Below, piece by piece: positions 137 through 22,745 of a DNA stretch of 64,000 nucleotides. Within the stretch, counting starts at the first letter, position 1. Every line of letters begins with the position of its first letter. Position numbers and translations under genes: made by a program. The notes under the pieces are model-generated. The model was not told the origin of the DNA. It was given only the letters and a program-made list of their open reading frames with translations, and made no database searches. Source of the stretch: a virus; IMG/VR virus record IMGVR_UViG_3300025018_000111, positions 1 to 64,000 of that record; one strand, given 5' to 3'.

Positions 137-247
137 GATAATATAGATATATTAGAAAAAAAATCCGTTCCAGAAATAACCTTTCATTTGAGGGGTTATT
201 TTTATTTCACCTTCTCATTTGACATTCTTTTTGAAACGTGACAATAT

Positions 248-676
248 TTGACCATGAACAACCAATCAGATAGAATTATGAAGTATATTATAGCAATTGA
301 GAGACAGATTGAATCAAACGATCTATTAAACATTTGGTTTTCTAATTTGGAAGAAAATCAAGATAAAAAAATAAAGCCAAATAATTTAATAATCACAATC
401 AATAATTTTTGGCAATATTTTCAGAGAATGGATATCAGAAGTTTTAAGGCTGATTTTATAGATTCTTATATCCGATTTGATAGGGAAGTTTCTAAGATTG
501 TCTATCGGTTAGAATATGGAGATATTGATTTAATTAAGGAAATAAATGATGATCGAATTTTAAATAAACTCATTGAAAATCAGATGACAAAATTCCTAAA
601 CGGAGAAGGAAAATATTTGACGATTGTGGCAAATTGGGGAGTTTCTAGTTTTCAAGAAAATAAAAAAATGAAATGA
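248..676 (+). CDS. hypothetical protein
   Basis: ORF behind promoter at 219; start may be a later ATG. Confidence 0.7.
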   Translation: MTMNNQSDRIMKYIIAIERQIESNDLLNIWFSNLEENQDKKIKPNNLIITINNFWQYFQRMDIRSFKADFIDSYIRFDREVSKIVYRLEYGDIDLIKEINDDRILNKLIENQMTKFLNGEGKYLTIVANWGVSSFQENKKMK

Positions 677-774
677 AAATCAAATCTGTACTTATCTTTA
701 TCTTTCAATTATTTTTAGCCAAACTAATGGAGATGATTAGCATAACAAGAAAGAATAAAATAGACTCAATATAG
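673..774 (+). CDS. 33-aa hydrophobic/basic peptide (paralogue of 11265-11366)
   Basis: MKIKSVLIFIFQLFLAKLMEMISITRKNKIDSI*; ATGA overlap with upstream gene; stop TAG inside the palindrome at 768. Confidence 0.7.
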   Translation: MKIKSVLIFIFQLFLAKLMEMISITRKNKIDSI

Positions 775-919
775 GTATATTAAAATAAATTATCATAAAC
801 TTTATGATTTAACCAGAAAGCGGCCTTTCCGAATGGGAGGCCGATTTTTTGTTTTAATTGATTGACAAAATATAAAATCCTGATAATATCAAACCGTGAA
901 CAAACAACCAAATAAAATT

Positions 920-1855
920 ATGAAAACAAGCGAAAAAATACTAAAATTCTGCGAAGATCACAAACTGACCGAAGATCAGTTCTTTGGGAGGGAAATGGTA
1001 AAATGGGGCCTTAACCTCAGCAATGTAACCGAAGTTCCAGAAGGATTTAATCCCATTGTTGGACGGGATCTTTATCTTGGTAATGTAACCGAAATCCCAG
1101 AAGGTTTCTGCCCTACCGTCGGATGGAGTCTTTTTCTCAATAATGCCACCAAAGTTCCAGAAGGTTTTAATCCTACTGTTGGGGGGTGTCTTTGGCTTAA
1201 TAGTCTACCCAAAATTCCAGAGGGATTCAACCCTACTGTCGGAAGGAGTCTTTTCCTCAATAGTCTAACCGAAATTCCAGAAGGATTCAATCCCACCGTT
1301 GGAGGGTCTCTTTATCTGAATAGTCTAACCGAAATTCCAAAAGGATTCGATCCCATTGTCGGAGGGAGCATTTTTTTCAAAAACAAGACAATTTCCGAAA
1401 CTAAAAAACCAGATCCCATCCTAACTTGGAAAGATGGAAAATATTGCCTGATTGACAGAATATTCGCAGAAGTCATCAATCGAAAAATTAAAGACAATAT
1501 TGAGATTTTTAAACTAAAAAAGATTTGCAGTGAGGAATATTTCTTCTCAGTAGTAAAAGGAAATCTGGCTGCTCATGGGAAAGGTTTGAAAGGGGCCTTG
1601 CTCGATCTCAGGTTTAAGGAAGAGAACCGAGACGTTTCTTCGTATGAATCTTTAACCTTAGATTCGGAATTATCATTCGAAGATATTGTCATCTGTTACA
1701 GAGTTATAACAGGAGCTTGCCAATTCGGAGTTGACAAGTTTATAGAAGAAAATTTGGAAAATCCTAAAGAAAAATACAAGATTCGGGAGATTGTCAAATT
1801 AACTGAGGATCAATACGGCGGAGAAGTTTTTTTAAAGTTTTTCCAAGAGAATTAA
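920..1855 (+). CDS. LRR-like 20-aa repeat protein (6 repeats) with conserved C-terminal YRVITGAC domain
   Basis: LxLxxxTxIPEGFxPxVGxx repeats with 60-bp period; GTG at 896 is an alternative start. Confidence 0.85.
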   Translation: MKTSEKILKFCEDHKLTEDQFFGREMVKWGLNLSNVTEVPEGFNPIVGRDLYLGNVTEIPEGFCPTVGWSLFLNNATKVPEGFNPTVGGCLWLNSLPKIPEGFNPTVGRSLFLNSLTEIPEGFNPTVGGSLYLNSLTEIPKGFDPIVGGSIFFKNKTISETKKPDPILTWKDGKYCLIDRIFAEVINRKIKDNIEIFKLKKICSEEYFFSVVKGNLAAHGKGLKGALLDLRFKEENRDVSSYESLTLDSELSFEDIVICYRVITGACQFGVDKFIEENLENPKEKYKIREIVKLTEDQYGGEVFLKFFQEN

Positions 1856-2022
1856 GATAATATACCTATATTAAAATAAATCGTCCTAAACTTTACGATT
1901 CAACCAGAAAGCGGCCTTTCCAAATGGGAGGCCGATTTTTTATATTGACATTCTTTTTCGAGTGTGTCATTGTAAAAGAGCAATAAACAAACCATTAAAT
2001 AAAATCAAAAAAAGTAAAAATT

Positions 2023-2241
2023 ATGAAAAAAGAAACTATTATATTGCCAAACGGAAATCTAGCTCGAATTGAATGGATCACAAGGGTAAGAGCGTTAGAA
2101 GGATTCAAAGGAGGGGAAAAGAACATCTCGGATCGTGTTGTGATTGAATTTAAACAGGGAGTGAACGAGGTTATCAATTATGATAATTTTGAAGATGCCG
2201 AAAATGATCGGGATTCTATTATTGAACAAATAATCGACTAG
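2023..2241 (+). CDS. hypothetical protein
   Basis: ORF behind promoter at 1945 with AAAATT-ATG start context. Confidence 0.75.
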   Translation: MKKETIILPNGNLARIEWITRVRALEGFKGGEKNISDRVVIEFKQGVNEVINYDNFEDAENDRDSIIEQIID

Positions 2242-2310
2242 TGGACGATTTACAAATTCAAAAGCATACGTTGGGACAAAATTGACTAAATAACCTTAAA
2301 AATAAAAAAA

Positions 2311-2952: not shown

Positions 2953-3471
2953 ATGTTTACTACCGAACAGAAGAAATTGATTATCGAATTACAAACAAGC
3001 AAAAAATATAAAGGAGGATTGATTGGAAACAATGATTCGGAGGAGAATTTGCATCGTTGTTGCTTGGGAGTTTATGCCCATTGTTGTGGATACAAGAAGA
3101 CTATAGAGAATCTTTTTCCAAAAATAAAATTTGAATTTTCAAGAGATATCGCTTTTTTTAAGGATTATAGTCAATGGAATCTTTATTCAGAAAATGGCAA
3201 ATTTTGCGATTTTTATATTTATTTAAGAGATGGGAGCGTAAAAATTTCTACTTTGGCTGCACTAAATGATTCAAATATCAAGGATTTCGACCACAAGTTT
3301 ATTTCAAAATTTCTCTTCACGATGCCTGAGAGAGTTTTTAGAAACTTTAACGAAGGTCATTTGAGTGAATTGGATTATGAATTTGGGGAATTCTTTTTGA
3401 AAGTCGAAAAATTGGCAGAAGAAAAGAATTATATTAGAATTACGGAGGGATGGAAAAAGGAATTGAGTTAA
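2953..3471 (+). CDS. hypothetical phage protein (CCLGV...LAALND motif)
   Basis: Own promoter at 2886; ends 2 nt before palindrome 3474. Confidence 0.75.
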   Translation: MFTTEQKKLIIELQTSKKYKGGLIGNNDSEENLHRCCLGVYAHCCGYKKTIENLFPKIKFEFSRDIAFFKDYSQWNLYSENGKFCDFYIYLRDGSVKISTLAALNDSNIKDFDHKFISKFLFTMPERVFRNFNEGHLSELDYEFGEFFLKVEKLAEEKNYIRITEGWKKELS

Positions 3472-3636
3472 GGAATATATCTATATTAAAGAATGACTCC
3501 TCGTTTCTCTTAAGCCGTCCATTAGAAAACATCTGAGATTCTTTATAGAGTCTTGGGTGTTTTTTTGTTCTATTTCATTTGACAAAATATAAAATCCTGA
3601 TAATATCAAACCGTGAACAAACAACCAAATAAAATT

Positions 3637-4692
3637 ATGAAAACAAACGAAGAAATACTAAAATTCTGCAGGGACCATAAACTGACCGAAGATCAGTTCT
3701 TCGGGAGGGAAATGATAAAAGGGGGCCTTAACCTTGAAAATTTAATCAAAATCCCAGAAGGTTTCTGCCCTACTGTTGGAGAAAATCTTTATCTTGACAA
3801 TGTAGTAGAAATTCCAGAAGGATTCACACCCATTGTTGGAATAAATCTTTATCTGAATAACTTGAACAAAATCCCAGAAGGATTCAGTCCTACCGTTGGA
3901 TGGAGTCTTTATCTTAATAATGTAACCAAAATTCCCGAAGGATTCAATCCAACCGTTGGAGGGAATCTTTACCTCAATAATGTAACTGAAATTCCAGAAA
4001 ATTTCAACCCCACTGTCGGATGGAGTCTTTTCCTCAATAATGTAACCGAAATTCCAGAAAATTTCAACCCTACTGTCGGCAGGGATCTTCATCTCAATAG
4101 TTTAACCAAAATTCCAGAGGGATTCAATCCTACCACCGGATGGAGTCTTTTCCTCAATAATGTAACGAAAGTTCCAGAAAGATTCGATCCCATTGTCGGA
4201 GGGATCATTTTTCTCAAGAACGAAATTATTCGCGAAAATAAAAAACCAGATCCTATCCTAACTTGGCAAAACGGAAAATATTGTTCGATTGACAGAATAT
4301 TCGCAGAAGTTGTTAGCCGAAAAATTAAAGACAATATTGAGATTCTCAAACTAAAAAAGATTTACAGTGAGGAATATTTCTTCGCAGTAGTCAAGGGAAA
4401 TCTCTCGGCTCACGGGAAAAATCTGAAGAGTTGTCTCCTTGATCTCAGGTTCAAAGAAGAGGAAAGAGACGTTTCTTCGTATGAATCTTTGACTTTAGAT
4501 TCGGAATTATCATTCGAAGATATGGTCATCTGTTACAGAGTCATAACGGGAGCATGCCAATTCGGAGTTGACAAGTTTATAGAAAAAAATCTAGGAACTC
4601 CTAAAGAAAAATATAAGATTCGGGAAGTCATTGAGTTGACTGGAGGTCAATATGGTGGAAATGTATTTTCAAAGTTTTTCCAAGAATCCTGA
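3637..4692 (+). CDS. LRR-like 20-aa repeat protein (8 repeats)
   Basis: Paralogue of 920-1855 with two extra repeats; promoter/leader identical to about 862-929. Confidence 0.85.
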   Translation: MKTNEEILKFCRDHKLTEDQFFGREMIKGGLNLENLIKIPEGFCPTVGENLYLDNVVEIPEGFTPIVGINLYLNNLNKIPEGFSPTVGWSLYLNNVTKIPEGFNPTVGGNLYLNNVTEIPENFNPTVGWSLFLNNVTEIPENFNPTVGRDLHLNSLTKIPEGFNPTTGWSLFLNNVTKVPERFDPIVGGIIFLKNEIIRENKKPDPILTWQNGKYCSIDRIFAEVVSRKIKDNIEILKLKKIYSEEYFFAVVKGNLSAHGKNLKSCLLDLRFKEEERDVSSYESLTLDSELSFEDMVICYRVITGACQFGVDKFIEKNLGTPKEKYKIREVIELTGGQYGGNVFSKFFQES

Positions 4693-4837
4693 AGAATATA
4701 GATATATTAAAAGAAATCTTCATAACCTTGAGAATTATCTTTAGAGCAGATTTCCGAAAGGGGATCTGTTTTTTTATTTGACATCGTTTTCAAGGTATGA
4801 TAAAATAATTATTAACAATCAATTACAAATAAATATT

Positions 4838-5330
4838 ATGAAACTAACTATACTTGGAGTGAACTACAACGTAATTTTTGTAAATCATAGATTTTATGGA
4901 TCTGATTTACAAGGATACATAAACAGATCGAACGAAATAAATATTGAGAAGCTGGAGAATTTATTGGACTCTATCAAGAATATTTCTTCAATGGCTGCAC
5001 TAGGATTGAGAGTTAATGTATCTCAACCGCTCGAAAATAACCCCTTCTTTAAAGGGAAAAGAGTTTTTTCGCCACCAGATATTAATATCACATTCGCAGA
5101 ACCAAATAAAGGAGAAAAGGTTTATATTTTGGACAGATTTACAGAAGACAATAATGAATTCTGCCGCATGACAAATAAAGATAAGGATTTTATCTCAGAA
5201 AAAGTCTTGGCGGATTTAAAAAATCAGAATTTAGATTTTGTTTCTATAATCCAAGAGTTAAAAATGGATATGCTGCTTTCAATTAGGGAATCTCTTCTTA
5301 ATTATCTTGAAAAAGAAGAAAGAAGGGTGG
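4838..5330 (+). pseudogene. Paralogue of 13345-13893 truncated by IS insertion
   Basis: Aligns with 13345-13893 up to SIRES...EKEE, then reads into the IS right end. Confidence 0.7.
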
Positions 5331-6642
5331 GTGAGCTACCCTGCCATGAATGGCAAGGCTTCTTCTTTCAACGACTGAGTATTCTCAATCTCCAGAAGCG
5401 TAGATTCGGGAAGCTCCTTCCCTATTGAACTTTTACTATCATTCTCGGCAAATGCCAAATTCTTGATATTAATTGCAGCATTCAAGTCTCTGTCATGGAC
5501 AAATCCGCAATTTTTACAAGTCCAAATTCTATCTCTCAATTTGAGATCATTATTGAGAGAAGAGCATTTATTGCATTTTTTAGAACTTGGTTCGTACTGG
5601 CCTATTAGTATCAAAGATTTTCCTTTATCGTCAAGTTTATATTTCAACAATGTTTGAAACAAATACCATCCACAATCCATTATATTTCTGGATAGATATT
5701 TATTTTTAATCATTTGTTGAATATTTAACTTTTCCATTGAAACTGAAGTATAAGTTTGGTTTTCACTTATACTGCAAGACAGTTTATGGAGAAAATCTAA
5801 TCTTGTGTTTGAAACTTTCTCATGTGTTCTCGCAACCTTAATTCGTTGCTTGTTTCGATTATTCGATCCTTTTTTCTTGCGAGAAAGTTTTCTTTGTTGT
5901 CTTCTTAATGATTTTAGTTTCCATTTTAAATGTTTTGGATTTTTGATTTTAGTCCCGTCAGAAAATGTTGCAAAATCTTTAATTCCCAAATCAATTCCGA
6001 GATTCGTATCAAATTCTGGCTTTATCTCTTTTTGTTTTTTGAGATTTGTTTCAACCAAGATGCTAACATAGTATTTGCCAGATTTGGTTTTTGAAATTGT
6101 ACAAGTTTTAATATTTCCAGAGAATTCTCTGTGGAAAACACATTTTATTCCATTTTTAAACTTTGGACAAAAGAATCTTCCATTTTCAAAATCTACCTTA
6201 CAATTTTGAGGAGACGAAAAAGATTGTTTATGATGCTTGGATTTGAAAGTGGGATATTTTGTTTTCTTTTTAAAGAAATTAGTAAAAGCAACATCCAGAT
6301 TTCTTAAAGAAGATTGAATAGACTGAGAATTGACTTCTTTCAACCAATTCAATTCTTTTTTCCATTCAGTTGCCATTTTAGAAATCTGAAACATATTAAC
6401 GGACTTTTTTGAATCTTTATATGATTCAGATCTAATGTCAAGCCCTCTGTTATAGATATATCTACAGACACCGAAATGCTTCGCTAAAAGCGTTTCTTGA
6501 TCTAGATTCGGATATAGTCTATATTTATATGCTTTCACTCTACTTATTAATACACTATTTTTTATAGAAAAGTATTGATTTCTTTAAATTTTCATCTGGA
6601 CTCTCTGTATCCCCAGACATTAATGTCGGGGTTTTAGAGAGT
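5331..6642 (-). mobile_element. IS200/IS605-family tnpB-only element (IS1341-like)
   Basis: Right-end hairpin GCCTTGCCATTCATGGCAGGGTAGCTCAC on the - strand ending at 5331; left-end hairpin CCCCAGACATTAATGTCGGGG near 6611-6631; no tnpA; left boundary approximate. Confidence 0.8.
5336..6538 (-). CDS. tnpB: RNA-guided endonuclease TnpB
   Basis: N-terminal KAYKYRLYP, RuvC-I GIDLG, RuvC-II E (SMEKLN), CxxC...CxxC finger, RuvC-III DRDLNAA. Confidence 0.95.
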   Translation of the reverse strand: MKAYKYRLYPNLDQETLLAKHFGVCRYIYNRGLDIRSESYKDSKKSVNMFQISKMATEWKKELNWLKEVNSQSIQSSLRNLDVAFTNFFKKKTKYPTFKSKHHKQSFSSPQNCKVDFENGRFFCPKFKNGIKCVFHREFSGNIKTCTISKTKSGKYYVSILVETNLKKQKEIKPEFDTNLGIDLGIKDFATFSDGTKIKNPKHLKWKLKSLRRQQRKLSRKKKGSNNRNKQRIKVARTHEKVSNTRLDFLHKLSCSISENQTYTSVSMEKLNIQQMIKNKYLSRNIMDCGWYLFQTLLKYKLDDKGKSLILIGQYEPSSKKCNKCSSLNNDLKLRDRIWTCKNCGFVHDRDLNAAINIKNLAFAENDSKSSIGKELPESTLLEIENTQSLKEEALPFMAG

Positions 6643-7101: not shown

Positions 7102-7256
7102 TATTAATATACCTATATTAAAAGAAATCGTTATAGACTTTACGATTTAGCCATGAGGCGGCTTTTCCAAAAGGGAAAGTCGTTTTTTTTCTTTACTTTT
7201 TAGAGAGATTGTGTTAATATAAATGAGAGGGGAAAACAACGAATTAAAATAAAATT

Positions 7257-7502: not shown

Positions 7503-7658
7503 ATTAGCAATATACCTATATTAAAAGAAATTGTCATAGACTTTACGATTTGACCAGAAGCGGTTTTCCGAGAGGAAGACTGCTTTTTTTTGTTGACGAA
7601 TATTCTGGATTGTGATACCATGAAGATGGTAAAACTAACTATCAGCCATAAAAATAAT

Positions 7659-7934: not shown

Positions 7935-7991
7935 GGACTGCTACAAGGAATATAGGTATATTAGAAAAATAAATTTCAAATTTACAAAATT

Positions 7992-8315
7992 ATGGATTTA
8001 ATATTTTACAAATTATCGTCAGCAAAATTAGGATGTTGGTCACATTTAAATGGCTCTGGAGGTCTTCCAGCTTCGGAAATAGTATCAAAATTTAAAGAGA
8101 AATTCGGACTAAAAACAGAATTAAAAATAAACACCGAGGATGAATATTCCAAAACTTTTGAGTTTGGACCAAGCGATGATCAATCTCTTTTTAAAGTTTT
8201 CCGCTATACTGCTGAGGATCAAGATAGAATTGTGGAACTGGAAAGACAGATTGGAAAAGAAGTTTTTATCACAGAGTATATTGATTTTTGCTTGACAGGA
8301 GAAAAGCCAAACTAA
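7992..8315 (+). CDS. hypothetical protein (possible distant paralogue of 14388-14702)
   Basis: Similar length, M..I.Y start, D..RI...E...G....EYI end; both start shortly after a palindrome. Confidence 0.7.
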   Translation: MDLIFYKLSSAKLGCWSHLNGSGGLPASEIVSKFKEKFGLKTELKINTEDEYSKTFEFGPSDDQSLFKVFRYTAEDQDRIVELERQIGKEVFITEYIDFCLTGEKPN

Positions 8316-8594
8316 AGAAATTGTCTCAGAGCTTCACGATTTGACCATGAAGCTGGCTTTTCCGAATGGGAATCGGTTCAAGGAATATACCTATATTAAA
8401 GAATGACTCTCAGTTTCTCTTAAGCCGTCCAAATAAGGATGGTTTTTTTTATTGACATTATCTTTTTTTCATGTTAATATAATATCGGAAACAATAATTC
8501 AAAATCAATAAAAAATATAAATTGAGCTATCAAGAAAAGTTGAATCAATTGAAACTTTTAAAGAAATCAGAATAAAATTCTTTGTAATAGAATT

Positions 8595-9530
8595 ATGAAA
8601 ACAAGCGAAAAAATACTTGAATTTTGCAGGGACCACGAACTAACGGAAGATCAATTTTTCGGGAGAGAGATGGTGAATGGAGATCTTAATCTTGAAAGTT
8701 TGACCGAAGTTCCAGAAGGATTTAGTCCTAAAGTCGGAGGAAGTCTTTACCTCAGTAGTTTAACTGAAATCCCAGAAGGATTCAAGCCCATAATTGGGAA
8801 GAGCCTCTTTCTTAGAAGTGTAACCAAAATTCCCGAAGGATTTAATCCCATTGTTGGACGGGATCTTTATCTTGGTAATGTAACCGAAATCCCAGAAGGT
8901 TTCTGCCCCACTGTCGGATGGAGTCTTTATCTGAATAGTTTAACCAAAATTCCAGAGGGATTCAATCCTACCACCGGATGGAGTCTTTTCCTCAATAATG
9001 TAACGAAAGTTCCAGAAAGATTCAATCCCATTGTCGGAGGGAGTATTTATCTCAAGAACGAAATTATTCGCGAAAACAAAAAACCAGATCCTATCCTAAC
9101 TTGGCAAAACGGAAAATATTGTTCGATTGACGGAATATTTGGGGAAATCGTCAGTCGAAAAATTAAAGATAATATCGAGATTTTCAAACTAAAAAAGATT
9201 TGTCGTGAGCAATATTTCTTCGCAGTAGTGAAAGAGAATCTGGCTGCTCATGGGAAAAATCTAAAAAGTTGTCTCCTCGATCTCAGGTTTAAGGAAGCGG
9301 AAAGAGACGTTTCTTCGTATGAATCTTTGACTTTAGATTCGGAATTATCGTTTGAAGATATGGTCATCTGTTACAGGGTGATTACGGGAGCCTGTCAATT
9401 CGGAGTTGACAAGTTTATAGAAGGAAATTTGAAAAATCCTAAAGAAAAATACAAGATTCGGGAAATTATAGAATTGACTGAGAATCAATACGGTGGAAAT
9501 GTATTTTCAAAGTTTTTCCAAGAATCCTGA
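8595..9530 (+). CDS. LRR-like 20-aa repeat protein (6 repeats)
   Basis: Mosaic of blocks shared with both other full-length paralogues. Confidence 0.85.
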   Translation: MKTSEKILEFCRDHELTEDQFFGREMVNGDLNLESLTEVPEGFSPKVGGSLYLSSLTEIPEGFKPIIGKSLFLRSVTKIPEGFNPIVGRDLYLGNVTEIPEGFCPTVGWSLYLNSLTKIPEGFNPTTGWSLFLNNVTKVPERFNPIVGGSIYLKNEIIRENKKPDPILTWQNGKYCSIDGIFGEIVSRKIKDNIEIFKLKKICREQYFFAVVKENLAAHGKNLKSCLLDLRFKEAERDVSSYESLTLDSELSFEDMVICYRVITGACQFGVDKFIEGNLKNPKEKYKIREIIELTENQYGGNVFSKFFQES

Positions 9531-9697
9531 AGAATATAGATATATTAAAAGAAATCTTCATAACCTTGAGAATTATCTTTAGAGCAGATTTCCGAAAGGG
9601 GATCTGTTTTTTTATTTAACATTCTTTTCAATTTATGAGAAGATATAAGAGTAGAATATCAGTTGAAGGTGAATATGAAATCAAATCAAATAAAATT

Positions 9698-9943: not shown

Positions 9944-10354
9944 ACAAACTGTCTATTTTTATACACACTGTATAAAAAGATACACAAGGGCAATTTTCCA
10001 AACAATTGGGATCTTGCTTCTTTTTTTGTGTTTGAAGATAAATAAAAAAGATTTAAATAAGAATATAATATTACAGAACAGTAGCACAAGTAAGGGAATT
10101 TGAAATTTTAGATTTAACGAGTTTTTAATACTCTTATGGTGTGGTGGTACTATTGTATAGGTGAAAACGAGCGAGAAGCGGTATTTTTCGCCAAACAGAG
10201 GCATTTTTAACCAGAGTGTGATTTCATCCAATATAGGTATATTAAACAAAATATTTCAACATGAGAAAAAAAACAGATTTTTTTTAATTGACAAAAGAGT
10301 AAAAATAGAATAGGATAAAAGAGGAACAGAACCCATAAAAAAAAATTACAACGT

Positions 10355-11257
10355 ATGAATAATCTTAACAAGATATTGAAATTATCAAATAAAAAATCTG
10401 AGCTTTTACATAATGAAGAATTCTTTTTTGTTGACCTAAAATCTAAGGCACGTTTAAGGGGTAAAAAAGATGGAAAAGAGTCAGGAATTTTTCTGAGTAA
10501 ATTCAAAGAAAATTCCTGTTTATGGGAGTCAGAATTCGATGGATTGGATAGGTTTTCAGAAGTGATGGTTTGTCCAGTGAGTACCTTAAAAAACATGGTG
10601 AATTTTTGCTCAAAAGACGAAACGAGATGGGTATTGGGGGGGATATTAATTCAAGATGAAAAGATGTGCGCCACAGATGGCAGTAGGATCTTAGTATCAA
10701 AAGAAGGTCCAGATAAAAGAGAATCCATATTGTTTCCTAGTGTTATCATGAAGGAAATATTGTCCCTAATAGATAAGAAAATTGAGGTTATTAATATCCT
10801 ATATCACAGGGGAGAAAGGAAGACTAAGTTCTATATTAAGCTAGGGAATATTGAAATAATTGGAGAATGTATTTCAGGGGAATATCCTAATTATAGACTC
10901 CTATTCGACAGTAAAATAGACAGAAAAGTTGATCTAAAAATCACTGGAAAATTGTTGGAAAAGTATAAAGAAATCAATAAAATATATGGGAAAAAGTTTA
11001 AGAAATACTTCCATATAAACGAAAATATTCAAGAAATTAAAGTTGATGATAATGAGGGTAAACTTGTTTTCTCAGAGAAATTTTCAGACTTGATTGAAGT
11101 TGAAGAAGGTTGTTCTGTTAACACAAAATTAGACTTGGAATTACTCAAAGACTTTCTAACCATAGACTTTTATCGTTCATCTTATGAGAAAGAATATCCT
11201 TCAATTAGGTTTGAATCTGAAAACTATAAAGCGATACTAATGGGGATGAGAGGGTAA
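10355..11257 (+). CDS. DNA polymerase III beta sliding-clamp-like protein (divergent)
   Basis: SKDETRWVLGGILI, ATDGSRI and GEYPNYRLL correspond to DnaN DETRYYLNG, ATDGHRL and GxFPDY motifs. Confidence 0.7.
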   Translation: MNNLNKILKLSNKKSELLHNEEFFFVDLKSKARLRGKKDGKESGIFLSKFKENSCLWESEFDGLDRFSEVMVCPVSTLKNMVNFCSKDETRWVLGGILIQDEKMCATDGSRILVSKEGPDKRESILFPSVIMKEILSLIDKKIEVINILYHRGERKTKFYIKLGNIEIIGECISGEYPNYRLLFDSKIDRKVDLKITGKLLEKYKEINKIYGKKFKKYFHINENIQEIKVDDNEGKLVFSEKFSDLIEVEEGCSVNTKLDLELLKDFLTIDFYRSSYEKEYPSIRFESENYKAILMGMRG

Positions 11258-11264: not shown

Positions 11265-11366
11265 ATGAAAGTAAAGTCTTTATTCATCTTTGTTTTTCAT
11301 TTATTTATCGGCAAAATCATAGAGATTATGAAGCTGATAAAGAAGGGAAAGATCGAGTCAATATAG
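11265..11366 (+). CDS. 33-aa hydrophobic/basic peptide (paralogue of 673-774)
   Basis: MKVKSLFIFVFHLFIGKIIEIMKLIKKGKIESI*; stop TAG inside palindrome 11360. Confidence 0.7.
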   Translation: MKVKSLFIFVFHLFIGKIIEIMKLIKKGKIESI

Positions 11367-11788
11367 TTATATTAAAAGAAATTCCCTTAAACTTCAAGAA
11401 GGGACACATAAGGATACTTTCCCAAACAATTGGGATTGTGTCCTTTTTTAGTATCCAAAAATGAATAGGAAAGATCCAAATAAGGATATAACGATACTAG
11501 CTTATAATAAGGCGGAGAGGCCTTAAAACGTCGGTTTTAACGCACTTCTGGCATCTTCTGGTGTGGTTGTACTGGCCAATAGACAAAAACGCCTTAGAGG
11601 TGCCTTTCTGTTCCAAATAGGATTATTCTCAAAAAGAATTGTGTCCTGACCAATATACCTATATTAAAATCACCCGAAGCTTTCAGATTTATCTGCGAGG
11701 TGGTTTTTTTTAAAAAGATTTGACAACGAAATAGAAATATGATAAGATAAAAGAGGGAAAGAAACCATATTAAACATAGAGAAATATT

Positions 11789-12328
11789 ATGATTACGATT
11801 AAAACTTTAGGAAGAGAATTTAAACTATTTGCAGATAAAGAAATCGACAGTCTTGCGACTTATGAGATTAAAGAGAATTGGATTACTTTTGATGGGAGTC
11901 TCGTCCAGTGGAAATTAGCGGAAACCCTCAATAAAATCAATGGATTTACCTTAAAAAATAGGTTAATATCTCTGAGAATAACAGAGAATGAAACGGAGCC
12001 AAATCCATTATTGACAAGGTTAAAAAGATCGTTTTTCACTCCTGAAATTTTACTTAGTTTTGATGAGAGTAGACAGGTCAAATATAAGTATATTGAGCAA
12101 AATTCTAGCCGGTACAAAAAGGGATTTTTAGAAATGACGGAGAAGGACAGGGAGAAATTTTTATCCATAGTCCATGAAGAAATAAAAGATACAGATTGGG
12201 AAGAAATAGAACAGAAAATCAAGGAATATTTGATGGAGAGATTGAAAGAAGTCCTGATGGAAACAAAAAGAGAGATGGAAACAAGGTTGAGTAATTTTGC
12301 CAAGGATTTAAAAGGGAGTATCGGATAG
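11789..12328 (+). CDS. hypothetical protein, distant member of the 4838/13345 family
   Basis: FFTPEILLSF vs VFSPPNINITF; FLEMTEKDREKF vs FLKMTNKDKDF; similar length. Confidence 0.75.
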   Translation: MITIKTLGREFKLFADKEIDSLATYEIKENWITFDGSLVQWKLAETLNKINGFTLKNRLISLRITENETEPNPLLTRLKRSFFTPEILLSFDESRQVKYKYIEQNSSRYKKGFLEMTEKDREKFLSIVHEEIKDTDWEEIEQKIKEYLMERLKEVLMETKREMETRLSNFAKDLKGSIG

Positions 12329-12490
12329 ATTTGACCGGAAATCAACATCAGGGGCGATTCTTTTTCAAAGAATTTCCCCCGAACCCTTAAGGAATATACC
12401 TATATTAAAAAAACTCTCTTTTCTTAAAATTGCTTAAAATATGAAAATTCCTCTGGGGAAAAGTTTGTTTTTAAGCGATTTTAAGAAAAA

Positions 12491-12676: not shown

Positions 12677-13344
12677 ATTTTTCTTAATTTTTCTTAAAAC
12701 TCAAACTTTCCTCTGGGGAAAAGTTTGTTTTTAAGCGATATTCAGTAATAACATCTTTCCACACTATTATACACAATCAAGGAAGATTCTTTTTCAAATA
12801 ATTTCCACCGAACACACTGGGGAATATAGGTATATTAAATAACAACTGTTTCCTTTTTAAAAAGAATATCAGGATCTGAAGGAAGAGATTCTGGAAATGA
12901 ACGAGATTGACCCAAATAAAATATGATTCTAAGAGAACACGACGGTTTTATAGAAAGATTTATTCTCTGATTCTTTATTTTTATTTTCTGATTGTTTTAT
13001 TTTTAGTGTATTTATGAAAAAAAAGCAAAATTTTAAAACGATTTTCTGATCCTTGGAATCCTAGTTTTGCGCTCAATATTTCAAGGAATATACCTATATT
13101 AAAATCAGGGGAGACTCTTCTTTGAAGAGTTTCCCCCGAACCCCCTAGCTGGATGATTACCGATCCAATATACCTATATTAAAGAATTAGCCTCCTTCTC
13201 AGGAAAACCGCTTTTAGCGGACAAATCGTAAAACCTGCGACGATTTCAATCTTTTAATTGGGATTTCTTTTTTTTATTTTATTGTTGACAAATTCTGGAA
13301 GTATGATAAACTAATATTGGGAATCATTTAATAAAAACAAAAAT

Positions 13345-13893
13345 ATGAAACTAACAATATTCGGAGTAAATTATAATGTGATTCTTGTAAATCACTCGTT
13401 CCACGAAGCTGACTTACAAGGATACATAAACAGATCAAATCGGATTAGTATTGACAAACTTAATAATTTTCTAACATCTATTCGGAATATACCGTCAACT
13501 GCGACAATAGGGTTGAGAATTGTTTTGCCTAAAACAATCGACTATTCTCCTTTTTCCAAAGGGAAAAGAGTTTTTTCGCCTCCTAATATCAACATTACGT
13601 TTTTGGCCCCAAATCAAGGAGAAAAAGCCTATATTTTAGATAGGGTTTCAGAAGAAGAGGAAGTGTTCTTAAAAATGACAAATAAAGACAAGGATTTCAT
13701 CTCAGAAAAAGTCTTGGCTGATTTGAAAAGTCAAAATCTAGACTTCATTTCTATAATAGAAGTTCTCAAAATGGATATACTTTTCTCAATCAGAGAATCT
13801 ATTTCCAGCAATCTCAGAAAACAAGAAGAAGAAATAAATAACTATAAGGAAAGTATGGTTGAAGCAATAGAACTCTTACATAGTTCCTTTTAA
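13345..13893 (+). CDS. hypothetical protein (intact paralogue of 4838-5330)
   Basis: High similarity; own promoter at 13285. Confidence 0.85.
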   Translation: MKLTIFGVNYNVILVNHSFHEADLQGYINRSNRISIDKLNNFLTSIRNIPSTATIGLRIVLPKTIDYSPFSKGKRVFSPPNINITFLAPNQGEKAYILDRVSEEEEVFLKMTNKDKDFISEKVLADLKSQNLDFISIIEVLKMDILFSIRESISSNLRKQEEEINNYKESMVEAIELLHSSF

Positions 13894-14042
13894 GAGAAAT
13901 TAAAATCAATTGTCGTTGCTTAATTGATTTAACCGCTGAAGCGGCTTCCCGAAAGGGGAGCTGCTTTTTTTTGTTGACTACTTGAAACGGTTCTGATAAA
14001 ATAAAGGTGCGGGATAGTTTAACAATAACAAAATTAGCAAAT

Positions 14043-14231: not shown

Positions 14232-14387
14232 GAATTCAATATACCTATATTAAAATCAGGGGAGATTCTTAGGAAAGAATTTCCCCCGAACCCCCTAGAA
14301 GGAATATAGGTATATTAAAATAAATTAACCCCAAAATAATTTTATTAAAGTGGCGAAATTCGCCAACTTTTAGCTAAAACGACTATT

Positions 14388-14702: not shown

Positions 14703-14972
14703 ATTTAACCACTATCAGGGGAGACTCTTCTCCGAAGAGTTTCCCCCGAACCCCCTAGTCAAATCCAATATACCTATATTAAAATCAATTGTCGTTGCTT
14801 AACGAATTTCTCTTTCAGAGAACTCGCTTTTAGCGGACAAATCGTAAAGCTTTGCGACGATTTCAATATAGGTATATTAAAACACACTAAAGGGAATCTC
14901 AGAAATGAGGTTCCCTTTTTTATTTTTTTTTATTTTGTTGACAAATAAATAAAATCATGATAAAGTATTTTT

Positions 14973-15101: not shown

Positions 15102-15163
15102 TGGTAAATTTCGCCACCATTTGACCAAATATACCTATATTAAAAAACAAATATTAAAACATT

Positions 15164-15328: not shown

Positions 15329-15427
15329 AAATCAAGGGAGATTCTTAGAAAAGAATTTTCCCTGAACACCCTATGGGAATATAGGTATATTAAAAGAAAT
15401 CACAAACTTTAAGATTTGACCAGATTT

Positions 15428-15856: not shown

Positions 15857-16023
15857 TGGAGAGGAACCCAATATAGGTATATTAAAAAACACTAGGGGAA
15901 TCTCAGAAATGAGGTTCCCTTTTTCTTGTTTTGTTTCGTTTATTTTTATTGACTTTATTTCCCGATAGTGTTAAACTAAAGTTGCACAGTATAATAATCA
16001 GAACACTTAAAACAAGTATTAAT

Positions 16024-16437: not shown

Positions 16438-16869
16438 CTCTGCATTTTATTTGAGTAATTTTCGAGCCGTCCCTTTTTAGGACGGTTTTCAGGGGAGACT
16501 CTTCTTTGAAGAGTTTCCCCCGAACCCCCTAGCTGGATGATTCCCGATCCAATATAGTTATATTAAAGAACTAAACTCCTTCTCAGGAAAACCGCTTTTA
16601 GCGGACAAATCGTAAAGCTTTGCGACGATTTCAATATACCTATATTAAAGTAGAAACCTCCTTCTCAAAGAAGCCGCTTTTAGCGGACAAATCGTAAAGT
16701 TTACGACGATTTCAATATAGGTATATTAGAAAATGAATCTGTATTCTATTTGAGTAATTTCCAAGCCATCCTTTTCAGGATGGTTTTTTCTGTTTTGTTT
16801 TAATTGACTAGTTCATCTTGTTATGATATACTGACTTTGAGAAAACTAACATTTAAAAATAAATTCATT

Positions 16870-17157: not shown

Positions 17158-17411
17158 GGTGTAGAAATTTATACAGTATGTAGCTTTTTATACATACTGT
17201 ATGAAAATCGACAGTCATAAAATTCTGAATAATAGGAAAGGAATATAGGTATATTAAAGAAAATCGTCGCGAACTTTATGATTGATTAGAAAATATAAAA
17301 GGAATCTCTTGATTGGGATTTCCCTTTTTCTTGTTTTTTATTTTATTTGACAAATCCTTGAAATTGTGCTAAATTATTGAGGCGTAGTAATTTTCAAATT
17401 TACAAAATTTT

Positions 17412-17729: not shown

Positions 17730-18393
17730 AGTCAAGGAAGACTCTTCCTTGAAGAGTTTTCCCCGAACCCACTAGCTGGATGATTCCCGATCCAATATAG
17801 TTATATTAAAGAACTAAACTCCTTCTCAGGAAAACCGCTTTTAGCGGACAAATCGTAAAGCTTTGCGACGATTTCAATATACCTATATTAAAAAAGCAAA
17901 CTCCTTCTTAGAAAAGCCAGCCGTAAAGTTTACGACGATTTCAATATAGGTATATTAAAATAAAAGCGCCGTTTTTTGAGAATTTCCGAAATAAATATGT
18001 AGGTAAAATGGGATTTCAAAAGTCCAAAATATTAACAGGATTTGGCCAAATAAATACGCGGGAGAAAAGATGTGATCTTGGGATTTTTGACATAGACTGG
18101 GTGATCTTTTTGAGAACGAGTCTCATTATCATTAAAAGAAGGTCGTTTCCCTGTAACTCGTTGAATTGGAAGACTTGTGAAAATTATCTCTGGAATCTAG
18201 CTTGTTTTAATATAACTAGGTTGAACGAGCTTTTGTAACTCGTTGGAAATGAACGATTTACAACTAAAAGAAAATTATTTTCAACTTTTTATTGACAATA
18301 GTTGTGAATATTTTAAATTGGTGTCAGTAGATTTTAGGCGAATCTAAAATCGACCAACCAGTATCGTTATTACTGTTATATCAATAAAATCTC

Positions 18394-18681
18394 ATGAATC
18401 ACGGACGATCGAAAAACCCCAAGAAATTGACAGAGATTAGTGTACAAATTGGACGCAATCAAAGCGTTCAGCATTGTGCTGCTAATTTTATCCGAAAAAC
18501 ATTGCCATCATTGGCAGATAGAATCGTTGGTGAAAAACCAACGAGAGCGGAATTTTTATCCCTACTATGGGATGAAATAGAATCTCTAGTGTCAGACATA
18601 CACGAATACATTGAAATGGAAGAAAAAGGGAATGTCAAACCATTGGAGAAACCGAAAAACACACGCAAAACATTATTCTAA
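18394..18681 (+). CDS. hypothetical protein
   Basis: First gene behind promoter 18292. Confidence 0.7.
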   Translation: MNHGRSKNPKKLTEISVQIGRNQSVQHCAANFIRKTLPSLADRIVGEKPTRAEFLSLLWDEIESLVSDIHEYIEMEEKGNVKPLEKPKNTRKTLF

Positions 18682-19829: not shown

Positions 19830-19864
19830 TCTAGTCTAGTCCAGTCTAGTCTGGTTCCTCATGT

Positions 19865-19898
19865 CCCTAGTATCTCGTTTGATACTAGGGAATTTTTT
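19865..19898 (+). terminator. Rho-independent terminator
   Basis: CCCTAGTATC-loop-GATACTAGGG followed by a T-rich tract. Confidence 0.8.
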
Positions 19899-20749: not shown

Positions 20750-21343
20750 ATGAAGACCGAAGGAATTTTCCGAGTATCCTTATGGGATGCTTGGAATTCT
20801 GGTATGCCAGTTGGAGACTGGCATATCAGAAACGCTCATGGTCAAAAAATCTGCCATTCAATAGAATGGCAGGATCATGAGCAAAAAATTTCCGTTAAGG
20901 AGAGATTATCTCTCCTTAACGGAGATTCGTTCATTTCCGGTAGCTCTGCTACCGGAAAGACTGGCTTTGAAGGCAAAGTCCTTCAAAGAGCCGGAAACCA
21001 TTTATTGGTTTCCGGAAAAGCGTGGTTTGCGAGCCACGCTTGCGGAGTGGACAGTGACAGTGTATGGGTTGATACCCACACTTTCTCCATGTCATTCCGT
21101 CCAAACTGCCAATATGTTGGCAGTTTGGATGGAAAGAAATTTCTGCCACTCGTAAGAGCGGTGGCAGAAATGCGAGCGGAAGAACTGGCAACCCGAATTG
21201 ACGACTATAAAAAGTCGTCATGGTTGAAGCCAGAGGTTTTGGCCTTCATGGAGCGCAGACTGCGCTCCATGGAAAAAATCACTGAACTCCATACCTTTGG
21301 GAATGGAGTTCGGGGAAAAGGACTGGTCACGATACCAGTCTAA
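20750..21343 (+). CDS. hypothetical protein
   Basis: 197-aa ORF with promoter at 20558, structured leader and own terminator. Confidence 0.7.
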   Translation: MKTEGIFRVSLWDAWNSGMPVGDWHIRNAHGQKICHSIEWQDHEQKISVKERLSLLNGDSFISGSSATGKTGFEGKVLQRAGNHLLVSGKAWFASHACGVDSDSVWVDTHTFSMSFRPNCQYVGSLDGKKFLPLVRAVAEMRAEELATRIDDYKKSSWLKPEVLAFMERRLRSMEKITELHTFGNGVRGKGLVTIPV

Positions 21344-21363
21344 CATCAGCAAAATAGAACACA

Positions 21364-21396
21364 AAGAGCATGGCTTTCGGCCATGCTCTTCTTTTT
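21364..21396 (+). terminator. Rho-independent terminator
   Basis: AAGAGCATGGC-TTTCG-GCCATGCTCTT followed by CTTTTT. Confidence 0.85.
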
Positions 21397-21562
21397 ACCC
21401 TTTCTTCACTACAATTGTATCAATAACATTGCTACAAGTGTAGCAATACCAATACAATAAAAGCGCCGTTTTTCACGCATTTTGCAAATACGACAATTGT
21501 AGCGAGATCCACCATAGTTTCTGAAAAATAAGACAAATGTAGTGGACGGCTGGGCGGGGGTG

Positions 21563-21696
21563 GGTTATACCCAAACGTACTAAAGCTCAAAAATCTTTAA
21601 GTACTAAAGCACAAAAATCTTTAAGAATATTACTCAAATCTTTAAGAATATTAGTCAACGTACTAAGCTCAAAAACCTTTGAAGGTGGTTATACCC
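21563..21696. repeat. Iteron-like tandem repeats bracketed by GGTTATACCC
   Basis: AAATCTTTAAG x3, TACTAA(A)GC.CAAAAA x3, GGTTATACCC at 21563 and 21687. Confidence 0.8.
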
Positions 21697-21936
21697 TAAT
21701 GTTCTTTTTCCTTATATCTCTCTCTAGCGTACGATTCATCAAAGGATGAACGAGCGGGGGGCATGGGGGGATACGAACAAAGTGAGTACCCCCCCCATTT
21801 ATGAATGGAAAAACCTTTTTGACTATTTTTGATAATCAAAAAGGAAAAATATGGGAAAAATATTTTTGTGGAAAACTCTTTGAAGATAGAGGGATATGTA
21901 TTTCTTAATATAGGTATATTGAAATCGTCAGAATCA

Positions 21937-22704
21937 TCAGACTAGGGGGTTCGGGGGAAACTCTTCTAAGAAGAGTCTCCCCTGATCTCCCCTGATTAAG
22001 ACTTCCGTTGTTTTTCTCTGGATTCCATCTTTATCCCTAATGTCCTTTTTGCTTTGACATTCCCAAACCGTCTCAAAACCTTTGGGGATATTCGATGAAT
22101 ATTCGGAAACGAATATCTGACAAGATTTTTGTCGGGACATATTTTTGACCCATTCATAAAACAGGTCGTGGTCAAAAGATCCCGCTTCTTTCGGAGAATA
22201 TCGGGTTGAATTCCGGTAGGGAATATCGCAATAAACTACGGAATTTTCGGGAATCTCTACGTCGGAATAATCGAGGTTGAATAAAGTGATATTTTTCCCC
22301 CTTAATTTGTCTATCTTTTTTACAATAGAATTAGAACCATTTTTCGCATAATTTCTTCCAGTATTGTCTCGACAATATCCTCCCCACCATTTGCCCGAAA
22401 ACGAACAGGCAAACCCAACGAACCCAACAAGAGCCGGATCATAAAGATCTGGGTTTTGTTTAATTTGCCGATATTCTTCTTCGGAAACGAAAGAGGGGGG
22501 AGTCCATCCTTTCAAACATTTCTCCCACATTTTTATGAGATACCGATGCTTATCATTCAGAATTATATTTTTCGACTTTATATTTGTCGCGATGTTTAAA
22601 GATCCGCAGAATAAATCGACAAAAGTATCATTTTCTGACATTTTTGAATTCAAAAACTCCGACAACGGTTTACTTATTCTAAATTTTCCTCCAAGGTAGT
22701 GCAT
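21937..22704 (-). CDS. DNA adenine methyltransferase (Dam/D12 class)
   Basis: YLGGK, DLFCGS motif I, YCDIPY motif IV, FDHDLFYEW, FVSEY. Confidence 0.9.
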   Translation of the reverse strand: MHYLGGKFRISKPLSEFLNSKMSENDTFVDLFCGSLNIATNIKSKNIILNDKHRYLIKMWEKCLKGWTPPSFVSEEEYRQIKQNPDLYDPALVGFVGFACSFSGKWWGGYCRDNTGRNYAKNGSNSIVKKIDKLRGKNITLFNLDYSDVEIPENSVVYCDIPYRNSTRYSPKEAGSFDHDLFYEWVKNMSRQKSCQIFVSEYSSNIPKGFETVWECQSKKDIRDKDGIQRKTTEVLIRGDQGRLFLEEFPPNPLV

Positions 22705-22745
22705 AATATCTTATCTTTCTTTTAATATAGCTATATTCGTTCCCA

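Follow-up and report, generated by a model that had tools for sequence, protein, structure and literature searches.

A short palindrome, AATATA-NN-TATATT, occurs as 35 exact copies within positions 140-22737 of the window analysed here (64,000 nucleotides of viral DNA, positions 1 to 64,000 of record IMGVR_UViG_3300025018_000111, which is 113,940 bp long and 68% complete). We tentatively favour, at rather less than an even bet, a reading in which these copies form part of a 17-mer that is a putative double-stranded recognition site for a dimeric protein; the site would act on early transcription and double as microhomology for cassette exchange. Nothing found demonstrates dedicated shuffling machinery.

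The first-pass annotation had counted 34 palindromes; chance predicts none, and 100 dinucleotide-preserving shuffles gave no match. Its remark that copies cease past 22.8 kb holds for the window (an exact-match scan of 22738-64000 found none). Across the whole record the early clustering stands, with two extra copies among 37 perfect ones, both within genes (81287 and 107140). One-mismatch copies number only two in the record, the chance level, so decayed copies are absent.

The 14-mer motif originally described is real but incomplete. AAA lies on the transcription-downstream side at 33 of 35 sites, and its polarity tracks the direction of transcription, both minus-strand sites included. The fuller motif is a polar 17 nt: S-AATATA-(G.)-TATATT-AAA (also given as S-AATATA-GN-TATATT-AAA), with perfect dyad symmetry in the 14-mer core. 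Twelve positions are invariant in all 35 copies. Homologous site flanks differ at 21% of positions, a divergence that predicts about 2.6 site changes per pair; the number observed among 595 pairs is 0. The centre is non-random (27 GG or CC, one GC, no CG), and at 34/35 sites one hexamer or the other has a G two bases upstream. In single-strand prediction, RNA included, an isolated site does not self-fold (0 to -0.4 kcal/mol).

As first described, the sites are essentially intergenic or at gene ends: 32 are intergenic, all within early spacers that total 7.7 kb, whereas none occurs in the remaining 8.9 kb of intergenic DNA, which is just as AT-rich. In 0-18 kb a site comes after about 24 of the 28 genes on the plus strand. 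The reported closeness to stop codons is also real, eleven sites overlapping a stop codon or lying within 6 nt of one. Nine start 2-6 nt past it, among them (plus strand here and below, unless noted; centres in parentheses) 140-153 (GA), 3 nt past the stop of a truncated LRR-like gene; 1859-1872 (CC), 3 nt past LRR-like gene 920-1855; 3474-3487 (TC), 2 nt past; 4695-4708 (GA), 2 nt past LRR-like gene 3637-4692; 7106-7119 (CC), 4 nt past; 7509-7522 (CC), 6 nt past; 9533-9546 (GA), 2 nt past LRR-like gene 8595-9530; and 14238-14251 (CC), 6 nt past. Two further sites, 768-781 (GG) and 11360-11373 (GT), each provide with their positions 5-7 the TAG that ends a 33-aa ORF (673-774 and 11265-11366, respectively).

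A site lies 19-71 nt ahead of six genes that lack a TTGACA promoter: those starting at 7992, 14388, 15164, 15428 and 18008, and a Dam-like gene. The intercistronic site 7949-7962 (GG) precedes ATG 7992 by 29 nt, with no intervening terminator or promoter; 15128-15141 (CC), 15378-15391 (GG) and 17943-17956 (GG) lie 22, 36 and 51 nt before ATGs 15164, 15428 and 18008. On the minus strand, 22724-22737 (GC) carries the AAA flank 19 nt ahead of the ATG of the Dam-like gene, and 21907-21920 adjoins that minus-strand gene with its A/T-rich flank on the opposite side, again in step with transcription. The sole intra-ORF copy of the early region, 12081-12094 (AG; within ORF 11789-12328), lacks the AAA flank. 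Other sites are 2811-2824 (GT), 8384-8397 (CC), 10230-10243 (GG), 11652-11665 (CC), 14767-14780 (CC), 15870-15883 (GG) and 17242-17255 (GG).

The common unit consists of an ORF; sometimes a hairpin, A; the site; sometimes a second hairpin, B; an intrinsic terminator; a sigma70 extended -10 promoter; and the next ORF. Nearly every small early gene of this large, uncultured phage ends with the palindrome, followed by a terminator and a host-type promoter. The order of site, terminator and sigma70 promoter read on first pass recurs in about 13 units, with promoters of the form TTGACA / TGnTAnnnT. Terminators follow sites at 821-843, 1912-1934, 2841-2868, 3524-3565, 4743-4772, 7155-7186, 7556-7587, 8422-8445, 9581-9610, 13938-13967, 14889-14918, 15894-15921, 16763-16786 and 17301-17322 (all plus strand; 39 intrinsic terminators were found, against 12.4 +/- 3.7 expected). 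Early sigma70-type promoters lie at 862-889 (TTGACA, 16-17 nt, TGnTAnnnT), 219-248, 3579-3606, 4778-4806, 8452-8480, 10288-10316, 11720-11748, 13285-13312, 13974-14002, 14938-14966, 16804-16832, 17347-17375 and 18292-18319 (all plus strand). The array is coextensive with strong host-type promoters, 12 of 14 strict ones falling at 0.8-17.4 kb. Spacing from the site is variable in both length and helical phase, ranging over 44-104 bp to the -35 element and 4-36 nt to the terminator stem.

The terminator/promoter modules fall into several mutually unrelated families. Module A, recognized by alignment, is a hairpin with a 13-bp stem and a CGAACCCCCTAG-like tail at 12347-12392 (+), with other plus-strand copies at 12776-12822, 13104-13166, 14255-14302, 14714-14766, 15331-15377, 16489-16550 and 17732-17793, and minus-strand copies at 21921-21986 and 22738-22790. 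The alignment of ten copies is 94.5% paired, with three compensatory pairs and a G.U invariant in 10/10; module A is a sense-strand RNA hairpin. It directly precedes sites 12393-12406 (CC) and 12823-12836 (GG), follows 13087-13100 (CC), and lies on one side of 13167-13180 (CC), which has inverted module B on the other. Module B, an AAATCGT..ACGATT hairpin followed by a terminator, runs forward at 1873-1941, 782-850, 7120-7196, 7523-7597, 4709-4775, 9547-9613, 15392-15424 (partial) and 17256-17325 (+). Inverted, and terminator-like on the minus strand, it occurs at 16565-16632, 13181-13250, 14815-14864, 16647-16713, 17808-17875 and 17890-17942 (-). Two triple arrays were found: 16551-16564 (GT), 16633-16646 (CC) and 16714-16727 (GG), spaced 82 and 81; and 17794-17807 (GT), 17876-17889 (CC) and 17943-17956, spaced 82 and 67. 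Site 16714 is the exact reverse complement of 16633 and pairs with it in folds; 14238 pairs with 14303-14316 (GG), enclosing module A, at -32.9 kcal/mol for the RNA. Predicted folds in which adjacent CC/GG sites pair have z-scores of -5.9 to -6.7, and four such pairs give predicted hairpins of 80-100 nt, the size of attC.

The claim that homology repeatedly breaks at the site survives scrutiny: a site is no more than 10 bp away for 56 of 204 clusters of HSP ends, compared with 16.2 +/- 4.3 under random intergenic placement. This enrichment is inflated, since alignments are seeded and lengthened by the shared 14-mer. Flanking modules assort independently to left and right; where site pairs have a homologous flank, 39 of 44 share one side only, and the pairs named by the first-pass annotation are present in the BLAST table. 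In one of them, 768/11360, the upstream similarity is that of two small ORFs that are paralogues. The earlier caveat concerned breaks at terminator/promoter junctions. Outside LRR cores, sites account for 56 of 140 junctions and promoters for 12, with the other 72 falling elsewhere, so that 60% are non-site junctions. Promoter-anchored pairs are equally mosaic (6/7 one-sided), the duplication 3459-4807 ~ 8369-9645 has its right edge inside a promoter by BLAST, and some junctions fall at the start of module A. Block 16489-16727 is flanked by two copies of one terminator module. Centres vary even within matching surroundings: 14865-14878 has GG where 16633 and 17876 have CC, with left flanks identical at 40/40 positions, and 13167 (CC) differs from 16551 (GT) inside a 94% identical block. 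Sites are the commonest points at which homology starts or stops, not the exclusive ones.

All cargo genes tested are ORFans. The early ORFs have no Pfam or PHROG matches, and no site-binding protein emerged; the one HTH-like candidate, ORF 18394-18681, yielded only a low-confidence model and has a weak RegB_T4 match (E 0.008, below cut-off). Tyrosine and serine recombinases and HUH nucleases, sought as the first pass had suggested, were not found in the approximately 85 ORFs scanned, nor were homing endonucleases, TnpA or RAYT. The earlier statement that no recombinase is visible needs one correction, since a mobile-element nuclease gene can be seen: TnpB (OrfB_IS605 plus Cas12f1-like TNB; 5336-6538, minus strand), lodged in gene 4839-5428 at its 3' end. 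This lone TnpB is a passenger within the array. The phage encodes a RecA-like recombinase, PD-(D/E)XK nucleases, an ERCC4 nuclease and UvrD, and has no apparent lysogeny genes. Its lineage is siphovirus-like, and TerL identity to cultured relatives does not exceed 25%.

How might the site work? Perfect dyad symmetry without self-folding suggests that a dimer recognizes the site as duplex DNA, most likely a phage- or host-encoded DNA-binding protein. From this, from the invariance of the site amid diverged flanks and from its placement we infer both protein binding and a transcriptional role. The site punctuates the 3' end of nearly every unit in what would be a host-RNA-polymerase-driven early ORFan region, and a protein on some 35 sites could act in cis on early transcription, either as a roadblock or insulator between units or as a region-wide silencer at the early-to-later switch, in the manner of stoperators or of dispersed operators of the KorB/P1-C1 type. 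The 17-mer is the only sequence common to all cassettes and would therefore be the commonest short-homology exchange point; exchange there by general recombination, with the RecA-like protein and PD-(D/E)XK nuclease of the phage, could yield the mosaic pattern. Junctions in promoters and at module A starts, and the position of block 16489-16727 between two copies of a terminator module, fit such general homology-driven exchange, as in PeSLs. Several observations sit awkwardly with this reading. The site precedes an intrinsic terminator, where a roadblock seems redundant; sites set so close to stop codons have the expected look of a cassette boundary; a simple symmetric dimer leaves the GG/CC bias unexplained; spacing to the -35 element and terminator stem varies; no binder emerged among the early ORFs; and no motif of this kind is present in distant relatives, whose TerL is 45% identical.

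The first-pass annotation proposed a dedicated recombination or cleavage site, which we consider unlikely. A putative nuclease or recombinase would cut at or near the 2-bp centre, and repair, or exchange of strands from one site to another, would excise, insert, invert and homogenise self-contained cassettes in an integron-like or homing-like fashion. The concentration of junctions at sites, with mostly one-sided homology, agrees with this, as do the eleven attC-like abutments of stop codons, module B beside sites in both orientations, and the attC-sized hairpins of the four CC/GG pairs. However, 72 + 12 of 140 junctions lie elsewhere, promoters are mosaic as well, and alignment can assign no crossover to the site itself, whose two arms never differ from copy to copy. 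Centres switch independently of identical flanks, but template switching at any small palindrome would equally produce the flip. Enzyme-driven homogenisation would also yield invariance without decayed copies, and the enzyme could sit in the missing third of the record; none appears among the ORFs scanned. The 6-bp half-sites are far below the length of known serine-recombinase crossover sites, and an isolated, unfolded site makes an attC-like or IS608-like single-strand mechanism unlikely. We rate as distinctly improbable a tiny proliferating REP, MITE or small dispersed repeat, alone or with hairpins A and B, spread by host or phage activity and functionless for the phage. The 80-100 bp site-B-site and site-A-site composites are MITE-like, modules occur in both orientations, and TnpB shows that IS200/IS605-type DNA entered the region. 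Yet invariant sites within flanks 21% diverged, with no decayed copies, argue for selection over a recent burst; centres differ on a module's two sides, so there are no target-site duplications; and the restriction to early intergenic DNA, the lack of TnpA or RAYT and the lack of a hairpin in the site itself also weigh against it.

Two further readings place the signal in transcription or its product. A -10-like element for host RNA polymerase, serving as a -35-less promoter or a sigma70-dependent pause at gene ends, seems improbable. TATATT, present on both strands, would drive short transcripts via hairpin B into the terminator, or aid termination. It matches the -10 consensus at 5/6 positions, a G occupies the extended -10 position for one hexamer at 34/35 sites, site-hairpin-terminator resembles a 50-70-nt transcription unit in either orientation, and in an unrelated contig (L013) the 17-mer overlaps the -10 of two promoters. 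But the T of the TG motif is missing, G orientation is uncorrelated with the orientation of module B or of the adjacent gene, and a promoter needs no full dyad symmetry. One firing directly into a terminator has no obvious use, and the six genes with a site in place of a TTGACA promoter are equally readable as operon members. Early genes of T7 are separated by RNase III sites, and an RNA-level signal, the least probable of these readings, would make the AU-rich 3' UTR 17-mer an endoribonuclease target, or have CC/GG copies form a 14-18-bp duplex processed in RNase III-like fashion. Module A, with its invariant G.U pair and compensatory changes, the pairing of CC/GG neighbours, the RegB_T4-like match and the transcription-polar AAA flank are consistent with this. 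Yet sites in mRNA are about half CC and half GG, so an RNA reader must ignore the centre; a lone site is unstructured as RNA, and about 25 have no nearby partner; and exact dyad symmetry is atypical of single-strand RNase targets.

Among known systems, integron attC arrays also place one recombination-site-like element at each ORF's 3' end, often touching the stop codon, in arrays of unrelated small genes. Here, in contrast, there is no IntI-like recombinase, cassettes carry their own promoters and terminators, and a 14-bp duplex palindrome with no single-strand fold stands in place of a structured site of 57-141 nt. The stoperators of cluster A mycobacteriophages (L5 gp71) are likewise present in more than 20 copies of one short, highly conserved site, dispersed in short intergenic spaces near gene ends with polarity following transcription (PMC9283540). 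Stoperators, however, are asymmetric 13-mers, bound by a monomer of a known repressor, genome-wide in temperate phages; the present sites have a dyad core and only a putative binder, and are limited to the early region of a phage with no apparent lysogeny genes.

The closest resemblance is to the PeSL cassettes of T4-type phages, which undergo general homology-driven exchange and, as here, combine a repeated intergenic terminator stem-loop with a strong sigma70-like early promoter (PMC2839356, PMC4122927). In both, the modules border small ORFans in a plastic region and join otherwise unrelated sequences, general recombination genes are present, and an integrase is absent. The earlier judgement that the array matches neither PeSLs nor integrons understated this likeness: a terminator and strong sigma70 promoter around ORFans is the PeSL layout. 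The differences are that the present phage belongs to an unrelated siphovirus-like lineage; that here the terminator is preceded, at the stop codon of the gene before it, by an invariant palindrome of 14/17 bp; that no other element is shared by all units; and that the terminator/promoter modules belong to several families. By analogy, then, the array appears to be a variant of PeSL regulatory cassettes plus an invariant palindrome.

The palindrome array described in the first-pass annotation is confirmed: the 14-mer AATATA-NN-TATATT occurs in 35 exact copies between positions 140 and 22737, nowhere else in the window, and not once in shuffled sequence. The whole record contains 37 copies, the two extra ones lying inside genes (at 81287 and 107140). 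Copies with one mismatch number only two in 114 kb, about the chance number; the array therefore has no decaying copies. Of the 35 copies, 29 are preceded by G or C and 33 are followed by AAA, making a polar 17-mer. At 21907 and 22724, beside minus-strand genes, the A/T-rich flank lies on the opposite side, so that site polarity tracks transcription. Symmetry ends at the 14-mer, whose core is a perfect dyad with 6-bp half-sites. GG and CC centres dominate (13 and 14 copies; the others are GT 4, GA 3, TC 1, AG 1, and GC 1), GC and CG being nearly absent; G adjoins one arm in 34 of 35 copies, and GG and CC copies are exact reverse complements of each other.

The 32 intergenic copies all lie within 7.7 kb of early intergenic DNA, versus none in 8.9 kb of equally AT-rich spacer elsewhere (68.5%). 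The constant relation of the site is to the end of the preceding gene. About 24 of the 28 plus-strand genes in 0–18 kb have a site before the next gene, and for nine sites the distance from stop codon to site start is 2–6 nt. Two further sites supply, at their positions 5–7, the TAG stop of paralogous 33-residue hydrophobic ORFs (673–774 and 11265–11366; 48% identity, 82% positives), which may encode small membrane peptides. The start codon of the first of these ORFs overlaps the upstream stop as ATGA. A general role for the site as stop-codon supplier was considered and dropped: it holds for the two small ORFs only.

Most units carry their own promoter and terminator. In about 13–14 cases the site is followed by an intrinsic terminator and then by a strong σ70-type extended −10 promoter. 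A strict promoter pattern (TTGACA, 16–17 nt, TGnTAnnnT) has 12 of its 14 matches in the record at 0.8–17.4 kb, and terminator-like sites number 39, versus 12.4 ± 3.7 expected. Spacing is loose: the site lies 44–104 bp from the −35 element, without phase, and 4–36 nt from the terminator stem. These variable distances argue against a classical operator. The idea that sites keep a helical phase with promoters or with one another was also dropped, as no such phase was seen.

Two recurrent hairpin modules lie beside the sites. Module A, present in ten copies (12347–12392 and nine more), lies between stop codon and site and consists of a hairpin followed by a CGAACCCCCTAG tail. Its 13-bp stem is 94.5% paired; three pairs show compensatory changes, and one G·U pair is invariant in 10 of 10 copies. 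Module A is therefore an element of the sense-strand RNA, probably a 3′-UTR RNA element. At the two minus-strand copies, the upstream ORFs (the Dam-like 21937–22704, and 22746–23165) run through the module and stop at its TAG. Module B directly adjoins the site in either orientation and has two hairpins, AAATCGT..ACGATTT and then one with a T run. The forward form leads into a real terminator; the inverted form makes 81–82-bp tandem units flanked by sites (16551–16727 and 17794–17956). The lone 14-mer has no predicted fold (−0.4 kcal/mol as DNA, 0 as RNA). Where pairing around a module is predicted, only four neighbouring CC/GG pairs form long hairpins; the predicted fold of the 14238/14303 pair reaches −32.9 kcal/mol (z = −5.9).

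Pfam and PHROG scans of 27 early ORFs found ORFans, save for four LRR-like paralogues, a Dam-like methylase, TnpB, and a weak sliding-clamp match; no families besides the last three passed the cut-off. The LRR-like genes (920–1855, 3637–4692, 8595–9530, and 2–136) are built from repeats of about 20 residues (..IPEGFNPTVGGSLYLN..) with many out-of-register internal matches, and the one copy scanned, 920–1855, matched no Pfam family. The clamp-like gene (10355–11257; DNA_pol3_beta_2, E 1.6e-4) is a single cassette in the ORFan array with its own promoter. TnpB (5336–6538, minus strand; OrfB_IS605 plus Cas12f1-like TNB, without TnpA) is inserted in the 3′ end of gene 4839–5428, a paralogue of 13345–13893 (HSP 4795–5296 ~ 13301–13803). 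Its atlas neighbours are viral and cyanobacterial TnpBs.

One further gene, at the distal end of the array, encodes a basic 95-residue protein with an HTH-like stretch (LTEISVQIGRNQSVQHCAANFIRK; 18394–18681, own TTGACA promoter at 18292). Its sequence is 68–73% conserved among uncultured relatives, two of which, P0123 and P0124, have 68–69% identity and lie on contigs of 19.7 kb and 158 kb; none of its relatives was found in IMG/VR. It has a weak Pfam match to RegB_T4 (E 0.008), an AlphaFold model with mean pLDDT 67, and no match in a PDB fold search. From its sequence it is a candidate regulator, RNase or site binder, and serves as a lead rather than as evidence.

Self-BLAST of the first 24 kb yielded 97 distinct repeat pairs with 204 end clusters. 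The first-pass annotation held that homology repeatedly starts or stops at the site, and 56 of the 204 clusters do fall within 10 bp of one, versus 16.2 ± 4.3 under random intergenic site placement. Part of this enrichment follows from the alignments themselves: all sites are identical, so that any alignment with one homologous flank continues through the site to its far edge, and a crossover inside the site cannot be located. The one-sided homology reported there is real as well: 39 of 44 site pairs with a homologous 25-nt flank share one side only. Of the 140 junctions outside the LRR repeat cores, 84 lie away from sites (12 in promoters, 20 at ORF starts or stops, and 52 elsewhere). A 1.3-kb duplication (3459–4807 ~ 8369–9645) terminates within a promoter. 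The block A-site-B-site-B-site (16489–16727) is flanked on both sides by copies of one terminator module, and its left end does not coincide with a site. Pairs anchored on promoters show the same mosaicism, 6 of 7 being one-sided. In the promoter-early stem-loop cassettes (PeSLs) of T4-type phages, homologous exchange happens at conserved regulatory sequences, and the junction picture here is the one published for those elements (PMC2839356, PMC4122927).

The site itself does not vary. Homologous flanks differ at 21% of positions, which predicts about 2.6 changes per pair over the 12 fixed positions; 595 site pairs contain none. Therefore either strong purifying selection or active homogenisation is at work. 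A perfect dyad that does not fold on itself suggests that a dimer reads the site as duplex DNA, and the polar flank, together with an array coextensive with host-type promoters, ties the site to the early transcription programme. We tentatively favour, as a possible account, a site core at which a protein docks to act on early transcription and which is also the commonest microhomology for cassette exchange. The docked protein would be an insulator, roadblock or region-wide silencer, and general recombination would exchange cassettes at the site microhomology. An RNA-level signal would be at home beside module A and would suit the polar flank; set against the zero predicted RNA fold and the perfect dyad, it is the least probable of the readings considered. 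We give little credence to a −10-like promoter or pause element. The lack of decaying copies counts against a selfish mini-repeat, which we regard as very improbable.

The first-pass annotation proposed a dedicated cleavage or recombination system, which would account for the shared single flanks and could supply homogenisation; the junctions away from sites speak against it, and we consider it unlikely. About 85 ORFs of the 114-kb, 68%-complete record were scanned, with no sign of a tyrosine or serine recombinase, an HUH transposase or a homing endonuclease. The scans did identify a RecA-like protein, an ERCC4/zinc-finger nuclease and two PD-(D/E)XK nucleases, along with a marginal match to DUF559. 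The ERCC4 protein (XPF/Mus81-type, with an N-terminal C2H2 zinc finger; 33680–34612; E 7e-5, just under cut-off) is encoded directly upstream of the large terminase. In its most elaborate form, which we think quite unlikely, the proposal would give a lytic phage its own integron-like system. The 14-bp palindrome, with its polar 2-bp centre, would be recognised by a putative nuclease or recombinase whose gene may lie in the missing third of the genome or be one of the ORFans. Acting there, the enzyme would cut out, insert, flip and homogenise cassettes of host-takeover genes, each self-contained with its promoter and ORF.

The window covers the first 64 kb of an IMG/VR virus record of 113,940 bp (CheckV completeness 68%). 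Pfam and PHROG searches identified the large terminase (TerL; 34587–36497); replication and nucleotide genes (ribonucleotide reductase, DnaB helicase, primase, UvrD, ThyX, PhoH); a DnaE polymerase with Hint/intein segments; tail genes (a 2239-residue tape-measure protein and a GpJ-like tail tip protein); and three DNA methyltransferases. Judged by this gene content, the phage is large and siphovirus-like. A 237-residue protein (31715–32428) with a weak match to σ70 region 4 heads the plus-strand block leading into the packaging genes, and may act as a phage-encoded sigma factor on later genes. Rfam and tRNA searches gave no match above threshold. Weak hints suggest a possible cyanobacterial host (TnpB neighbours, split DnaE intein, PhoH) and stand outside the argument; a genome collection search with TnpB as host tracer matched nothing.

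No cultured relative was found: the best TerL match in the phage collection, to Bacillus phages, is 25% identical, and a DNA search of the phage database had no match. A few uncultured relatives reach 79–94% TerL identity (P0001, on a 47-kb contig, is the 94% one), and about 45% is common to a big family of marine metagenomic phages. Five long records of that family (43–47%; one of 133 kb) contain neither the motif nor any over-represented palindrome, and the array is therefore specific to a narrow lineage. Searches for the motif array in IMG/VR, metagenome contigs and the genome collection found only chance or unrelated repeats. IMG/VR yielded chance pairs of sites in unrelated AT-rich contigs, and about a hundred single, uninformative matches to the module A core. 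The metagenome contigs yielded tandem sites in one unrelated contig (L013:5712–5806). There the 17-mer (AATATACCTATATTAAA) occurs twice, each copy overlapping the −10 of a duplicated TTGACA/TTTACA-N17-TATAAT promoter, an operator-like position; this may be chance. In the genome collection, 68 loci of unrelated MAGs hold tandem repeats, some of them spaced as in CRISPR arrays; none shows protein homology to the phage. A Spirochaetota MAG (L271:3184–3357) has nine iteron-like tandem 20-bp repeats, each with AATATAGTTATATT, and no protein homology to the phage.

Large phages try out new genes in their early, host-takeover regions. To our knowledge, the regulation and reshuffling of these regions are poorly understood outside T4-type phages. 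The present array is an unusually clean case: a single invariant 17-mer at almost all gene ends, in a lineage without a cultured relative. If the site docks a regulator, that protein would be a global early-gene switch, and pulling it down on DNA would be a simple way to find it. Should it instead prove a genuine site of recombination, the array would amount to a cassette-exchange system with no known family of recombinases behind it.

Several known systems invite comparison. Integrons have an adjacent IntI tyrosine recombinase, 57–141-nt attC sites that are imperfect palindromes folding as single-stranded DNA, and promoterless cassettes served by a common promoter; here, by contrast, about 85 ORFs of the 68%-complete record lack any integrase domain, the lone 14-mer has no fold, and most units have their own promoter and terminator. 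Serine invertases and resolvases use inverted half-sites of about 12 bp with a 2-bp crossover, whereas the half-sites here are 6 bp and no resolvase domain was found. IS200/IS605, PATE and REP/RAYT elements present subterminal hairpins to a Y1 HUH transposase, whereas this site has no hairpin and the phage only TnpB, with neither TnpA nor RAYT in the ORFs scanned. Stoperators, too, are numerous, lie in short intergenic spaces and have an orientation that follows transcription. However, they are asymmetric and bound by a monomeric repressor with HTH and stoperator domains; the site here is a perfect dyad, and profile searches of the early ORFs detected no repressor-like protein. PeSLs are recognised by indels and replacements between sister phages that are bounded by cassettes, and by mini-circles. 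Like them, the present array has repeats containing a strong σ70-consensus early promoter, a stem-loop terminator immediately upstream of that promoter, and ORFans in a hyperplastic region. The most fitting class for the array is that of PeSL-type early regulatory cassettes; what distinguishes it from PeSLs is that each gene end bears an invariant, polar 17-mer built on a palindromic core.
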